From positions 49,720-113,719 of the forward strand of contig JAKLIQ010000007.1 in assembly GCA_022709525.1 (NCBI GenBank): a stretch of 64,000 bases of DNA, in the 5' to 3' direction. This stretch comes from Candidatus Omnitrophota bacterium (lineage in GTDB: Bacteria > Omnitrophota > Omnitrophia > Omnitrophales > Aquincolibacteriaceae). The notes beneath the pieces are model-generated. The model did no database searches, was not told the origin of the DNA, and saw nothing but the letters and a program-made list of their open reading frames with translations. How positions within the stretch are numbered: the stretch's first letter is position 1; each line of letters opens with the position of its first letter. Both the position numbers and the translations under genes were made by a program. Below, one piece after another: positions 41,685 to 50,106 of this stretch.

Positions 41685-41741
41685 ATGGGTAAGAAAAAAA
41701 GACTGAAACTCGAGGAAATGCGATGGGGGTTGGGGTTGTGA
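41685..41741 (+). CDS. 18-codon u[21 protein letters not shown] overlapping the gmd start in another frame; its first 30 nt duplicate the start of the 42899 membrane-protein gene
   Basis: atgggtaagaaaaaaagactgaaactcgag at 41685-41714 versus atgggtaagaaaaaacgtctgaaactcgag at 42899-42928. The only 2 mismatches are synonymous Arg codons. Confidence 0.25.
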
Positions 41742-42850
41742 AAAAAGCGCTTATTACGGGGGTTACGGGGCAAGACGGATCCTACCTTGCCGAGTTCCTC
41801 ATTTCCAAAGGATATGAAGTTCACGGGCTTATTCGTAGGGCAAGCAGCTTGAACACAAAAAGAATCCACCATCTCTGCGGTCTTCCGCATGATCAGAATG
41901 CAGATCTATTATTGCATTATGGAGATCTTACTGATAGCAGTGGATTAAATCGCCTTTTGGAAAAGATCGGTCCCGATGAGATCTATAATCTCGGGGCCCA
42001 GTCCCATGTCCAGGTTTCTTTTGAGATGCCGGAATATACCGCGGAAGTGGACGCTCTCGGCGCTTTGAGGCTTCTTGACGCGATAAAAGAAACAGGATTG
42101 AAAGAACAGATCCGTTTTTTTCAGGCGTCATCCTCCGAGATTTATGGAGAGGTACATGAAATCCCTCAAACGGAAACAACGGCGTTCTGCCCTCGCTCTC
42201 CTTACGGGGTCGCAAAACTTTATGCTTATTGGATGACAGTAAATTACCGCAAAGCTTATAGCCTGCACGCTTCAAATGGGATTTTTTTTAATCATGAGTC
42301 GCCTCGGCGAGGGGAGATGTTTGTGACCAGGAAAATCGCACAGACCGTGGTCGCGATCCTTCGGCAAGAGCAGGAATGTTTGCACATCGGAAATCTTGAC
42401 GCAAAGCGGGATTGGGGGTATGCGCCGGAATTTGTCGAAGCTATGTGGCTGATGCTGCAGCAAGATCAGCCAGATGATTATGTCATCGCGACAGGAGAAT
42501 CTCATAGTGTTCGCGAGTTTATCGAGAGGGCTTTTTCATTTTTAGGCGCGACTCTTGAGTGGCATGGAACCGGATTGAATGAGACGGCCGTCATCAAAAG
42601 TTTCGAACCCGTTTTTGACTTTAAGTTATCGTTTAAAAAAGGAGTTCCTGTTGTTAGGGTTGATCCCGCTTTTTTGAGGCCCATGGATGTCGAATTGCTT
42701 ATGGGGGATCCAACTAAAGCAAAGCATGTGCTGGGCTGGGAGCCGAAGGTGCGGTTTAATGATTTGGTTCGCATTATGATGGAGGCGGCGCTTGCCGATC
42801 ATGCGACATCCTTTCAAAATATTGGCAATCTAAGATTCGCACCATTTTGA
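41723..42850 (+). CDS. gmd: GDP-mannose 4,6-dehydratase
   Basis: [36 protein letters not shown]...[34 protein letters not shown]...[16 protein letters not shown]. Canonical Gmd/extended SDR motifs (TGxxGxxG; YxxxK region). Confidence 0.9.
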
Positions 42851-42898
42851 ACGTGCTATTTCTTGAATATTTTTCGCAATTTTTAATGGCGATTCGAT

Positions 42899-46999: not shown

Positions 47000-48111
47000 A
47001 AACAAAAATAAATATTCCATGGGCCCAGCCGTGTTTTTGGGGTGATGAACAAAGATTTGTGACGGACGCATTAAGGTCATCTTGGATCTCCGGCGGTCCT
47101 TTTGTGCAACGGTTCGAAAAAGAATTGGCGAAGCATCATGGCGTTCCGTTCTGCATCACGACGTCGAATGGGACCACTGCGCTGCAACTGGCGCTTATGG
47201 CGGCGGGCGTTGGTCCCGGCGATGAAGTGATCGTTCCTGGGTTTTCGTTCCTTGCTCCGGCCAATATGGTCCTCGGGATCGGGGCAAAACCGGTCTATGC
47301 GGATATCGATCCGGCAACTTGGTGTATGGACCCTGCTTGCGTTAAAGCGAAGATCTCGCGCAAGACCAAGGCGATCGTGGCGGTCCATAACTACGGAAAT
47401 GTTTGCGATATGAATGCTCTTCGGGGCCTGGCTAAGCGTCGCGGGCTTTTTCTGATCGAAGACGTTGCGGAGGCACTTTTTTCAAAATATAACGGTCAAC
47501 TGGCCGGAACGTTTGGTGATATCGGCTGTTTCAGTTTTCAAGCTACGAAAACCATCACGATGGGAGAGGGCGGATGCGTTCTCACCTCTAACAAGAAGCT
47601 ACACCGCTTGATGCGCCTCATTCGCGACCATGGGATGCCGCAGCGGGGGCGTTATTGGCACGAAGTCCTGGGGTACAACTTCCGGTTGACCAACCTTCAA
47701 GCGGCCTTAGGTTGCGCGCAATTCAAGTACCGTTTAAGGATCATCGCCGCAAAACGAAAAGTTTATTCTCTTTATCGTAAATATTTAAAGGGTCAAAAGG
47801 GGATTCGGTTCCAGTTGGTTCGCCGGGAGGTCCGGCCGGTGATCTGGACGGTCGCCGTTGAGATCGATCCTTCGGTGTTTAATATGAAAAGAGACGAAGC
47901 TATCCGGTGTTTGGCGGCGGCCGGGATAGAGACTCGGCCAGGGTTTATACCCGCAAGCCTGATGCCGCTCTATCATGCGCCATCTTTGCCTACAGCCGAA
48001 CGTATCAGCGCCAGGGTCCTGTGCCTCCCGTCTTTTCCGGGATTGAAGGAGTCTGAGATCAAGCGCATTTGTGGCCAATTGAAGAAGCTAAGTAGAAAAA
48101 CGCATGGATAA
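46996..48111 (+). CDS. DegT/DnrJ/EryC1/StrS-family PLP-dependent sugar aminotransferase
   Basis: PWAQPCFWGDEQRFVTDALRSSWISGGPFVQRFEKELA...; SFQATKTITMGEGG (Lys-containing PLP motif). Confidence 0.9.
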   Translation: MKTKINIPWAQPCFWGDEQRFVTDALRSSWISGGPFVQRFEKELAKHHGVPFCITTSNGTTALQLALMAAGVGPGDEVIVPGFSFLAPANMVLGIGAKPVYADIDPATWCMDPACVKAKISRKTKAIVAVHNYGNVCDMNALRGLAKRRGLFLIEDVAEALFSKYNGQLAGTFGDIGCFSFQATKTITMGEGGCVLTSNKKLHRLMRLIRDHGMPQRGRYWHEVLGYNFRLTNLQAALGCAQFKYRLRIIAAKRKVYSLYRKYLKGQKGIRFQLVRREVRPVIWTVAVEIDPSVFNMKRDEAIRCLAAAGIETRPGFIPASLMPLYHAPSLPTAERISARVLCLPSFPGLKESEIKRICGQLKKLSRKTHG

Positions 48112-48802
48112 GATCTCGGTGATCCTGCCCACGTTCAATGAGCGGGAAAATATCATTTCGCTCATCCCGGCCATTCATAGCAAGCTCCGGGATTTTTCTC
48201 ATGAGATACTTGTCGTGGACGATCAAAGCAGCGACGGAACGGCTCAAGCTGTTACGGATCTCCAGGATCCGGGAGTCCGCGTGATCGTCAGGACCGAAGA
48301 CCATGGTTACGCCAAATCCATCCGGTGCGGGATCGAGCAGGCGGCGGGGGACATCTTGATCCTTATGGATTCTGATTTTAATCATGATCCGCGGTATCTT
48401 CCCGTCATGGCTCAAACCTTATCCGGCTGCGATTGCGTTTCCGGATCAAGATTTTTAAAAGGGGGAGGGATGGCTCCGGCATGGCGCGGCTTTTTAAGCA
48501 GGATCTTTAACCTTTTTATCCGCCTCGTGACCGGCGGAAAGATGAGCGATAGTCTTTTTGGGTTTTTTGCGATCAAGAGGGGATCGCTTAAACGTTGCCC
48601 TCTTGACGAGATTTTCTTTGGATTCGGTGATTATGGGATACGCCTGCTCTTTTATCTTCAAAAGAAGAGAGCCGGCATCGTTGAATTTCCGGCGATCTGC
48701 GGCCGCCGGTTGGCAGGTCGAGGAAATCGCCGCTTTTTTCAAACTTTCTGTCAGTACACGGCGGCAACCTTGGCGCTTGCCGGTAAAGGCAGGATATCTT
48801 GA
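48104..48802 (+). CDS. family 2 glycosyltransferase (polyprenyl-phosphate sugar synthase-like)
   Basis: SVILPTFNERENI...ILVVDDQSSDGT...ILILMDSDFNHDP. GT2 DxD architecture. Confidence 0.85.
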   Translation: MDKISVILPTFNERENIISLIPAIHSKLRDFSHEILVVDDQSSDGTAQAVTDLQDPGVRVIVRTEDHGYAKSIRCGIEQAAGDILILMDSDFNHDPRYLPVMAQTLSGCDCVSGSRFLKGGGMAPAWRGFLSRIFNLFIRLVTGGKMSDSLFGFFAIKRGSLKRCPLDEIFFGFGDYGIRLLFYLQKKRAGIVEFPAICGRRLAGRGNRRFFQTFCQYTAATLALAGKGRIS

Positions 48803-50106
48803 TCATTTCTCCGATAAAAAAATGCCGCGGTTGCGGTAATCCGGACCTTGTCCCCATTGGTAGTCTTGGGACGATGGCGTTTTCCGGCATTTTTCCAAAG
48901 AAGGACGAGGCTTTTGTCCCCGAAGGGCCCCTGGAACTTATGAAATGTCATGGGGACCCGGACCGAGTCTGCGGCCTTTTGCAGCTCAAACATTCCTTCG
49001 ATCCCCATATTCTTTTCGGCGAAAGCTATGGCTACCGATCAGGCCTCAATGGGTCCATGCGCGAGCATTTGCAGGATATCGCCCGCAAAATCAAAGGTTT
49101 TGTCACTCTTAAAGAAAAAGATGTTATCGTGGATATTGGCAGTAATGACGGGACGCTACTCAGTTTTTTTTCCGGAGAAAAACTTTCCTTATGGGGGGTT
49201 GATCCCACAGCCGGCCAATTCAAGAAGTACTATTCCGAAGATGTTCAAATCCTTCCGGAGTTATTTTCTGGGAAACTTATCAAGAAAAGTCTCGGGGTAA
49301 AAAAGGCGAAGGTGGTTACAGCGATCGCTGTCTTTTACGACCTTGACGCTCCGGCGGAATTCCTTAAGGAGGTTCGGGAGATTTTAAGTGATGACGGGGT
49401 CTGCGTCCTGGAGCAAAGCTATTTACCGTTGCTTCTCGAGAATCTTGCCTATGACACGATCTGTCATGAGCATATGGCCTACTATCGGCTCAAACAGATC
49501 CGGTGGCTGGCGGACCGGGTCGGTCTCAAGATCATCCACTGCGAGAAAAATCAGGTCAATGGCGGCAGTTTCTGCGTGGCGTTGGCGCAAAGAAACTCCG
49601 CATTTTCCGAAGATTCGGGAACCGTCAGTCAGTTTATCGAGGAGGAAAAGCGATTGTCGCTGGATACTTTATCTCCCTTTAAGAGTTTTTTTGACAATAT
49701 TTTTAAGCATCGTAAGGCCTTGCAGCGTACGGTCAAAACCCTGCGCGCTGACCGCAAGTGTGTTTTAGGATACGGGGCCTCGACCAAAGGCAACGTTTTG
49801 CTGCAGTTTTGCGGATTCACTCCCGAAGATATCCCGTTTGTGGCAGATGTTAACGAAGACAAATGGGGCCGGGTCTGTCCCGGGACCAAGATCCCGATCA
49901 TTTCCGAGGAAGAAGCCAGAAGTAAAAAACCGGATGTTTTTTTTGTCCTTCCTTGGCATTTTAAAGAAGGATTTTTGATAAAAGAAAAGAAATATCTCCG
50001 CGACGGCGGCGCATTCCTTTTTCCGCTCCCCAAAGTCGATCTTATCGGCTTAAAACAGATTGATTTTCCACCAATTTACAGCCCAGCCGCATCACTAGTC
50101 ACCTGA
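48799..50106 (+). CDS. NDP-hexose C-methyltransferase-like protein (TylC3/Methyltransf_13-14 architecture with N-terminal Zn-ribbon CRGCG)
   Basis: KKCRGCGNPDLVPIGSLG...VDIGSNDGTLL...CHEHMAYY...LGYGASTKGNVLLQF. Last gene of the + strand operon. Confidence 0.65.
   Translation: MIISPIKKCRGCGNPDLVPIGSLGTMAFSGIFPKKDEAFVPEGPLELMKCHGDPDRVCGLLQLKHSFDPHILFGESYGYRSGLNGSMREHLQDIARKIKGFVTLKEKDVIVDIGSNDGTLLSFFSGEKLSLWGVDPTAGQFKKYYSEDVQILPELFSGKLIKKSLGVKKAKVVTAIAVFYDLDAPAEFLKEVREILSDDGVCVLEQSYLPLLLENLAYDTICHEHMAYYRLKQIRWLADRVGLKIIHCEKNQVNGGSFCVALAQRNSAFSEDSGTVSQFIEEEKRLSLDTLSPFKSFFDNIFKHRKALQRTVKTLRADRKCVLGYGASTKGNVLLQFCGFTPEDIPFVADVNEDKWGRVCPGTKIPIISEEEARSKKPDVFFVLPWHFKEGFLIKEKKYLRDGGAFLFPLPKVDLIGLKQIDFPPIYSPAASLVT

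Follow-up and report, generated by a model that had tools for sequence, protein, structure and literature searches.

What does an operon make that joins a sugar-nucleotide pathway to an orphan membrane protein and two radical S-adenosylmethionine (SAM) enzymes, and on which carrier do these enzymes act? The question is raised by eight consecutive genes of an uncultured Candidatus Omnitrophota bacterium, within a stretch of 64,000 nt that we analyzed as a whole (the window; positions below are window positions unless a locus label is given). With moderate confidence we lean towards a cassette that works in two stages: A methylated amino-deoxy-sugar would be made and loaded on polyprenyl phosphate, and would then be tailored further at the membrane. 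The first, cytoplasmic stage is reconstructed from homology, the second, membrane-bound stage from gene fusions and genomic context. The distinctive and apparently undescribed feature is the orphan membrane protein, which would tether a B12-binding radical SAM enzyme and a methyltransferase, while the rest of the cassette is a variant of the known logic of deoxy-amino-sugar synthesis and polyprenyl-phosphate glycosylation. The genes, preceded by a remnant open reading frame (ORF), are as follows:

41685-41741, + strand: remnant upstream ORF of 19 codons, duplicated from the 5' end of the 4TM gene and overlapping the start of gmd
41723-42850, + strand: gmd, for a GDP-mannose 4,6-dehydratase; ATG start; TIGR01472, PF16363
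42899-43447, + strand: orphan membrane protein (4TM); ATG start; four helices by hydropathy and AlphaFold2 (AF2)
43501-44943, + strand: rSAM1, B12-binding radical SAM enzyme, copy 1; ATG start; PF02310, PF04055
44940-46382, + strand: rSAM2, B12-binding radical SAM enzyme, copy 2; ATG start; PF02310, PF04055
46379-46999, + strand: small class I SAM-dependent methyltransferase (small MT); TTG start; PF13489, PF00891
46996-48111, + strand: DegT-family sugar 4-aminotransferase, perosamine-synthase-like; ATG start; PF01041
48104-48802, + strand: soluble GT2 with a catalytic domain like that of dolichol-phosphate mannose synthase (DPMS) and ArnC; ATG start; PF00535
48799-50106, + strand: C-methyltransferase (C-MT), TylC3/TcaB9-type, for NDP-hexoses; TTG start; PF08421/PF13489/PF08484

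An eight-gene cassette and its conservation

The original prediction had named these eight ORFs with their domains and coordinates, and the ORF list, Pfam and NCBIfam bear out all of them, including the tandem pair of paralogous B12-radical-SAM enzymes. Its count of five junctions at which start and stop codons overlap by 4-8 nt is likewise exact: The distances in gene order are +48, +53, -4, -4, -4, -8 and -4 nt, and the overlaps join six of the eight genes, with gaps of 48 and 53 nt after gmd and the membrane-protein gene. Such an overlap of stop and start codons is ordinary operon grammar and nothing unusual per se. A motif check found intact catalytic motifs in every enzyme of the operon; a pattern scan for promoters and terminators returned nothing better than the shuffled expectation.

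Related loci were gathered by exact-protein look-ups, a GTDB genome scan and a metagenome scan and mapped against the window proteins with phmmer (L-numbers denote recovered loci, P-numbers proteins or their contigs). Database proteins 100% identical to those of the window are annotated as Candidatus Omnitrophota. Across Omnitrophota and in one metagenome-assembled genome (MAG) of Elusimicrobiota (L045), they share a conserved core of 4TM, small MT, DegT, GT2 and C-MT. The eight-gene operon is a genuine, conserved glycan-tailoring cassette, of which we found no earlier description in the literature, nor of B12-radical-SAM enzymes working with lipid-linked sugars. The radical SAM gene varies in copy number: No copy is present in L052 and L053/54, one in most loci, and two in the window, the P0002 contig and L044, the tandem duplication having occurred at least two independent times in a neighbour-joining tree. 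Both gmd and the second rSAM were added in particular lineages.

The nucleotide-sugar stage and the lipid carrier

The first enzyme of the proposed pathway would be Gmd, which would make GDP-4-keto-6-deoxymannose from GDP-mannose. By its sequence it is predicted to be a canonical enzyme: It scores 538.4 bits against the equivalog profile TIGR01472, well above the cut-off of 415, matches PF16363 at 1e-142 and carries the motifs GVTGQDG at residue 13 (GxTGxxG) and YGVAK at residue 161 (YxxxK); thousands of database Gmd proteins share 65-70% identity with it. A GTG at codon 6 is a possible alternative start.

The gene has a history of its own. A 30-nt direct repeat (41685-41714 and 42899-42928, 28 of 30 positions matching) brackets gmd, and the remnant ORF in front of it recurs upstream of gmd in the relative L082. 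Repeat and remnant together look like a scar left when gmd was captured; the remnant ORF may since have taken on the role of a coupling leader. Among the recovered loci, gmd is linked to the cassette in no more than two cases: this organism, to which L047 is identical, and the close relative L082, whose Gmd is 86% identical. Moreover, the GC content at third codon positions (GC3) is 0.476 in gmd, the same as in a nucleotidyltransferase gene further upstream, and 0.54-0.58 in the cassette genes. Because of the bracketing repeat, the limited distribution and the lower GC3, gmd is a later insertion into the cassette, and its capture at the cassette head is a hint that the cassette consumes GDP-4-keto-6-deoxymannose.

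In the next step, the C-MT would add a C-methyl group beside the keto group, probably at C3. Its three-domain architecture (PF08421/PF13489/PF08484) lies above all cut-offs, and its best match in the PDB is 4rv9, annotated as D-mycarose 3-C-methyltransferase (E 1.7e-56, residues 6-416), followed by KijD1 and TcaB9 at about 1e-43, with end-to-end alignment to all three. The Zn-binding CxxC occupies residues 9-12 and the HEH motif lies at residue 223. The TTG start is required, because the next ATG, at codon 26, would lose this CxxC. DegT would then aminate C4 of a sugar of the GDP-4-keto-6-deoxymannose type: It matches PF01041 with 382 bits (4e-114), in the PDB it comes nearest to the perosamine synthetases 3bn1 (E 3.5e-80), 3dr4 and 3dr7, all at about 1e-80, and SFQATK at residue 180 retains the lysine for pyridoxal phosphate (PLP), not the histidine of the dehydrase type. 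None of the equivalog cut-offs of NCBIfam is reached by DegT. The product expected from this first stage is GDP-4-amino-4,6-dideoxy-C-methylhexose. Four independent hints argue for a GDP-linked sugar: the capture of gmd, the matches of DegT and of GT2, and a phosphomannose isomerase that adjoins the cassette in L011. The combination of Gmd with a TylC3-type C-methyltransferase on GDP-4-keto-6-deoxymannose has been proposed earlier for Coxiella virenose (PMC3539893).

The soluble, DPMS-like GT2 would subsequently move the sugar onto polyprenyl phosphate. It matches PF00535 with 99.6 bits (2.5e-28) and carries DDQSSD (DDxSxD) and DSD; its nearest solved relatives are the Dol-P-Man synthase of P. 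furiosus (5mlz, E 3.8e-28) and ArnC (1.4e-13), although its 232 residues align only with the catalytic part of DPMS. The sugar-nucleotide logic of the original prediction thereby stands, with a canonical Gmd, a perosamine-synthase-like DegT that keeps its PLP lysine and a C-MT nearest to 4rv9, as does its assignment of the GT2 to the polyprenyl-phosphate type. On the matches of Gmd, DegT, C-MT and GT2, a C-methylated 4-amino-4,6-dideoxyhexose on polyprenyl phosphate is a reasonable product. As to the heavily C-methylated amino-deoxyhexose that had been predicted, sugar type and lipid carrier hold up, and the share of the radical SAM enzymes in its C-methylation is plausible but unproven.

A cationic amino sugar on polyprenyl phosphate immediately recalls the Arn pathway, and it is quite possible, if not what we would expect, that the cassette serves an Arn-like charge modification of the envelope or of lipopolysaccharide (LPS), on lipid A, core or another envelope polymer, without any functional tie to the giant gene that lies upstream of the operon. 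DegT and GT2 mirror ArnB and ArnC (DegT matches ArnB at an E of about 5e-48), O-antigen or teichoic acids are the typical targets of three-component periplasmic glycosylation (PMC11127046), the cassette is conserved at a distance from giant genes in several lineages, and related radical SAM enzymes occur in LPS-type clusters, for instance together with GT9 in L040. Yet the window holds no homologues of ArnA, ArnD, ArnT, ArnE or ArnF, the best matches are enzymes of GDP-sugars and not of UDP-Ara4N, and the non-random adjacency of the cassette to giant genes, described below, would be left unexplained.

The membrane protein and the radical SAM enzymes

What sets the cassette apart from a soluble pathway is the company of its membrane protein. 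The 4TM protein has no match in Pfam or NCBIfam; its membrane helices are predicted by hydropathy and by an AF2 model of the protein alone (pLDDT 91), and a fold search with this model against the PDB gave nothing significant (best E 0.8). An exhaustive profile search places it in a family of 318 representative clusters, with the invariant motifs RYxFSWxxR and YWKHP and the invariant residues H122 and D127. In L044 it is fused to the radical SAM enzyme (P0027, 50% identity over 159 aa, E 6e-40), and in L004-L006 a 355-aa protein fuses it to the small MT (its halves match at E 3e-29 and 7e-44); further fusions of the latter kind, 355-362 aa long, are found in the representative library (P0150, P0175). 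In P0027, the radical SAM enzyme is joined by its C-terminus to 4TM at the latter's basic N-terminal side, a polarity as expected if the radical SAM enzyme is cytoplasmic. Moreover, 4TM, rSAM and small MT are always contiguous in the cassette loci, although their order varies, and the small MT adjoins or overlaps the 4TM gene in most of them. The small MT itself exceeds its cut-offs by little (PF13489, 27.4 bits against 27; PF00891, 24.7 bits against 22.3), has the SAM motif VIDVCAGCG and finds no sequence match in the PDB.

With one fusion to the radical SAM enzyme and another, independent one to the small MT, 4TM probably keeps at least part of the tailoring at the membrane and off the free nucleotide sugar. 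We propose that 4TM is a scaffold or flippase that binds the carrier lipid and tethers these two enzymes. Fusions and context together suggest that a sugar linked to polyprenyl phosphate is tailored at the membrane, as part of a periplasmic route that resembles Gtr and Arn: 4TM would hold or flip the lipid-linked sugar and dock the small MT, for N- or O-methylation, as well as one or more B12-radical-SAM enzymes, which would tailor unactivated carbons further, most likely with methyl groups, and whose copy number (0, 1 or 2) would set the extent of tailoring. Finally, a GT-C transferase encoded elsewhere would draw on the completed lipid-linked sugar, outside the cytoplasmic membrane. DprE1/E2, which act on decaprenyl-P-ribose, are a precedent for tailoring a sugar while it is bound to its carrier lipid (PMC11127046).

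Distant homologues of 4TM extend this picture. One overlaps a methyltransferase gene in L062. In L067 and L072, a distant homologue stands between a GT2 and PMT_2-type GT-C transferases, with radical SAM, B12-radical-SAM and methyltransferase genes around it; this slot between GT2 and GT-C is the one that GtrA, the proposed flippase, occupies in three-component periplasmic glycosylation systems (PMC11127046). Both loci are dense clusters (L067 4892-15064, L072 588-12293) of PMT_2 GT-Cs, GT2, the 4TM homologue, SPASM- and B12-type radical SAM enzymes and a methyltransferase, possibly a larger relative of the system with a linked GT-C.

How far the tailoring is methylation depends on the two radical SAM enzymes, which are 68% identical over 480 aa without a gap (67% at the nucleotide level). 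rSAM1 scores 59.7 bits against PF02310 and 72.3 bits against PF04055, rSAM2 68.8 and 72.6 bits (cut-offs 32.1 and 29.5). Both carry CX3CX2C at residue 186 (CPFHCSFC in rSAM1, CLFNCSFC in rSAM2) and keep all 58 invariant columns of the family alignment. The AF2 model of copy 1 (pLDDT 91) has a class B fold, and a Foldseek search with it returns class B enzymes. In the neighbour-joining tree, rSAM1, the faster-evolving paralogue, groups with P0002. rSAM2, the copy nearer the single-copy orthologues, is placed with P0003 and P0004 and outscores rSAM1 in the comparison with every relative.

Their closest characterized relatives are remote. The best NCBIfam profiles, HpnJ, ApyD and BchE, yield 94-138 bits against cut-offs of 481-750, and the best PDB sequence matches by phmmer are AprD4 (2.4e-13) and MgmA/QCMT. 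The Foldseek ranking is flat (MgmA, AprD4, TsrM, CysS, OxsB, TokK; TM-score 0.64-0.69, 14-18% identity), with AprD4 at the top by TM-score (0.69) and the C-methylase MgmA/QCMT closest by E-value. An assignment to any family by NCBIfam, phmmer against the PDB or Foldseek was rejected, all values lying far below the thresholds. The GenK/Fom3-type placement that had been predicted is likewise unsupported: TokK, the only solved GenK/Fom3-type relative in a comparison that did not include the GenK and Fom3 sequences themselves, matches the B12 domain only (E 5e-6, residues 51-194), CysS is not found by sequence search with the rSAMs, and no family cut-off is approached. The two enzymes appear to form a clade of their own without a characterized member, of class B by architecture and fold. 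The analogy to GenK and Fom3 is unsupported by sequence, yet functionally uncontradicted, and a role as methylases is plausible. The pattern of 0, 1 or 2 copies fits optional, additive tailoring such as methylation.

In a serious, if less likely, rival reading that is backed by documented chemistry (non-methylating B12-radical-SAM reactions are known; PMC12931638), the pair would not be methyltransferases and would instead catalyze dehydration or deoxygenation, epimerization, oxidation to a ketone or ring contraction of the sugar. The best profiles include HpnJ, which acts on a lipid-linked aminosugar, and AprD4, best by PDB sequence match and by TM-score, is a sugar 1,2-diol dehydratase. All these similarities, however, fall far below the family thresholds, the closest fold by E-value is a C-methylase, and a copy number of 0-2 suits an additive decoration better than an obligatory skeletal step.

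The genomic context of homologues supports a sugar-related role: At 31-40% identity, they recur beside genes for gmd-like short-chain dehydrogenases/reductases, DegT and glycosyltransferases in Verrucomicrobiota, Rhodospirillaceae, Desulfuromonadaceae and DPANN archaea. The LPS-type cluster of L040 (6872-19328, a Desulfuromonadaceae MAG) holds gmd, two radical SAM/SPASM genes, two B12-radical-SAM genes (31% identity to those of the window), GT9, E1 dehydrogenase subunits, a lipoyl/PglD-like acyltransferase and DegT. L018 (4581-9686) has three rSAM homologues in tandem; in the Elusimicrobiota locus L045 (3054-21446), at least three further B12-radical-SAM genes surround the cassette, and an IS110 transposase directly follows the C-MT. 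A lone Omnitrophota homologue, 54% identical, lies among small unannotated ORFs in L001/L016/L042 (10001-11509) with no cassette genes within 10 kb, which shows that the clade is not strictly tied to the cassette.

Several observations weigh against the two-stage scheme. Outside this lineage gmd is unlinked to the cassette, which leaves the nucleotide carrier of the relatives without support. The GT2 lacks the transmembrane (TM) segment of DPMS, ArnC and GtrB (maximal 19-residue hydropathy 0.94), 4TM has no detectable similarity to GtrA, to SMR proteins or to any solved structure, and some of its distant homologues stand in housekeeping contexts (for example L069 and L061). No GT-C gene is present among the ORFs of the 64-kb window, and the giant protein has no PMT_2 match. 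As for the radical SAM enzymes, the nearest profiles, HpnJ, ApyD and BchE, and the near fold AprD4 are not methylases, and AprD4 and ArsL possess a related N-domain that does not bind cobalamin (PMC12931638); a scan of 40500-51200 for a cobalamin riboswitch and other RNA elements gave chance miRNA-like matches only and no riboswitch.

The giant gene and the acceptor

Because the operon follows a giant gene, the original prediction had considered the giant protein, or the cell envelope, as a possible target of its sugar. Two features of the context matter here:

35-40771, + strand: giant gene (13,578 aa)
40927-41487, + strand: AbiEii-like nucleotidyltransferase, 186 aa; PF08843, 8.9e-8

The operon does not lie directly downstream of the giant gene, as had been stated: From the giant stop at 40771 to gmd, 951 nt with the AbiEii-like ORF intervene. 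This ORF was considered and rejected as a nucleotidyltransferase of the pathway, as it belongs to a toxin-antitoxin-type family, has a low GC3 and varies in position among relatives. The spacer of relatives contains variable toxin-antitoxin genes (PhdYeFM/ParE, DUF5674, PIN, BrnT) and is, for this reason, a hotspot for small mobile modules. Pfam annotates no more of the giant protein than three lectin-like F5/8 type C domains around residue 4100 and a DUF4214 at about residue 1820, and the protein was therefore also rejected as a source of sugar-metabolic or glycosyltransferase domains of the enzyme-rich 'Archaeovorin' type. Clusters of TM segments lie at about residues 5794-5985 and 9137-9198; an obvious N-terminal signal peptide is absent.

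The cassette lies no more than 10 kb from a giant gene in six lineages and in two arrangements. In the first, it is downstream of the giant gene (the window, L007/8 with a giant protein of 18,951 aa, L009/10 and the P0006 contig). These loci share the downstream YqeY/Bat synteny and have homologous giant proteins, with C-termini 35% identical between the window and L007, and therefore represent one evolutionary event. In the second (L044, L053/54), the cassette has two T2SSF genes on one side and a different giant gene on the other; the N-termini of the giant proteins of these two loci are 52% identical to each other and bear no similarity to the giant protein of the window. This arrangement sits within a conserved neighbourhood of secretion-system and giant genes that West-Roberts et al. 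have described (bioRxiv 10.1101/2023.11.21.568195). In at least four other lineages (L011/L050, L004/5, L045 and L052), no giant gene is found within the visible flanks of the cassette. The association is non-random and not obligatory, and the possibility that the cassette is conserved independently of the giant gene, by which the predicted link was to be judged, is accordingly split: It holds in the several relatives without a giant gene nearby and fails where the cassette stands beside giant genes in two arrangements.

Candidates for the acceptor are the envelope or LPS, the pilins of a neighbouring machinery resembling a type II secretion system (T2SS) or type IV pilus (T4P), and the giant protein; the window encodes neither a GT-C nor an oligosaccharyltransferase. 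In L007 and L004, the cassette has pilin-like (N_methyl) genes at its flanks. A second, divergent 4TM paralogue (phmmer 38-46 bits) occurs in L009 (7496-8059), L010 (548-1111) and L012 (2688-3329), separate from the cassette's own 4TM gene; in L009 it begins 22 nt past the stop of the giant gene.

We consider it unlikely that the sugar is made specifically for the adjacent giant protein or for pilins of the T2SS/T4P-like machinery found with giant genes. The proximity in six lineages and two arrangements speaks for such a dedication, as do the divergent 4TM paralogue 22 nt after the giant stop in L009 and L012, the pilin-like genes beside the cassette and the conserved secretion-system neighbourhood (bioRxiv 10.1101/2023.11.21.568195). 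Against this stand the loci without a giant gene in their visible flanks, the reduction of the four downstream cases to one evolutionary event and the variable toxin-antitoxin genes in between; moreover, no transferase connects the sugar to any protein, and the cassette is unreported in either paper on Omnitrophota giant genes.

That all tailoring is carried out on the soluble nucleotide sugar, by rSAMs acting as C-methylases of unactivated carbons like GenK and Fom3 and with an incidental membrane protein, is improbable. The B12-binding domain and CX3CX2C of the rSAMs, the prevalence of methylases among characterized B12-radical-SAM enzymes (PMC12931638) and the lack of a strong TM helix in the rSAMs themselves (maximal hydropathy 1.55-1.67) would agree with it, but 4TM forms fusions with the rSAM in one lineage and with the small MT in another and is always contiguous with both, which contradicts a bystander role, and the restricted likeness to TokK, the failure of sequence search to find CysS and the distance from every methylase cut-off do not favour it either. 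Quite improbable, finally, is the most far-reaching version, in which 4TM would be a new carrier-lipid scaffold or flippase that recruits rSAM and MT, and a hyper-methylated amino sugar would be dedicated to an attack apparatus of giant protein and pilus-like structures.

Beyond the operon, on the - strand at 51063-53045, the window encodes a BatB-like VWA/TPR protein whose C-terminal tail, some 150 residues of low complexity, is extremely enriched in Q, D, E and K; this tail accounts for the strong dip in AT skew at 50-52 kb.

If the two-stage reading is true, radical SAM chemistry on a lipid-linked sugar, brought about by a dedicated membrane protein, would be a new layer of bacterial glycan diversification, and a function would be assigned both to a sizeable uncharacterized clade of B12-radical-SAM enzymes and to an orphan membrane family with some 300 representative clusters. 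As a recurrent and hitherto unreported neighbour of Omnitrophota giant genes and their secretion system, the cassette offers a concrete candidate for glycosylation of the surface or of an apparatus in these uncultured, possibly predatory, ultra-small bacteria. Its 0, 1 or 2 rSAM copies and its captured gmd illustrate how a cassette evolves by modular gain and loss.

Comparison with known systems

Kansosamine-type sugars are 3-C-methyl-4-amino sugars. The routes to GDP-perosamine in Caulobacter and Vibrio and the proposed one to virenose in Coxiella (PMC3539893) share with the cassette the use of Gmd followed by C4 transamination and/or TylC3-type C-methylation. The cassette differs from them in that it joins both steps with a DPMS-like GT2, a membrane-tethered methyltransferase and B12-radical-SAM enzymes, and in that gmd is mostly unlinked in its relatives. 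The C-MT resembles the 3-C-methyltransferases TylC3, TcaB9 and KijD1 in its three-domain architecture, Zn cysteines and HEH motif; these enzymes act on dTDP-2,6-dideoxy-4-keto sugars in antibiotic pathways, whereas the substrate of the cassette enzyme is likely a GDP-linked 6-deoxy-4-keto-hexose.

With the Arn pathway, the cassette has in common that the product of a DegT-family aminotransferase would be loaded by a GT2 onto polyprenyl phosphate for extracytoplasmic transfer. Unlike Arn, it would start from a GDP-hexose and not from UDP-GlcA and would add C-methylation and radical SAM steps, and only ArnB-like and ArnC-like similarity is present in the window, without ArnA, ArnD or ArnT. The nearest catalytic GT2 is that of P. 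furiosus DPMS, a type III enzyme with its own 4-TM domain. Human DPM1 uses a separate anchor, DPM3, and the cassette operon, too, encodes a separate small membrane protein. The cassette departs from this organization of Dol-P-Man synthases in that fusions bind 4TM to the rSAM and the MT and not to the GT2, and its 4TM model has no likeness in the PDB.

Three-component periplasmic glycosylation systems, namely GtrB/GtrA/Gtr*, CsbB/GtcA/YfhO and the polyprenyl-P-ribose systems (PMC11127046), likewise place a small four-helix membrane protein beside a GT2 of the type that makes polyprenyl-phosphate sugars, and in L067 and L072 a PMT_2-type GT-C flanks the GT2/4TM pair in the canonical order. In contrast to these systems, the cassette 4TM lacks GtrA or SMR similarity, the GT2 lacks a TM domain, the window lacks a GT-C, and 4TM forms fusions with a radical SAM enzyme or a methyltransferase, for which Gtr-type systems have no described counterpart. 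With the class B radical SAM enzymes GenK, GenD1, Fom3, HpnJ and AprD4, the rSAMs share an N-terminal Rossmann domain of the B12 type, a radical SAM barrel and C-terminal helices, and like the class B enzymes that act on sugars they occur in a sugar-modification context. They differ from the solved members of the class by an identity of at most about 18% and form a separate clade, whose C-terminal helices, together with the fusion to 4TM, imply an association with the membrane.

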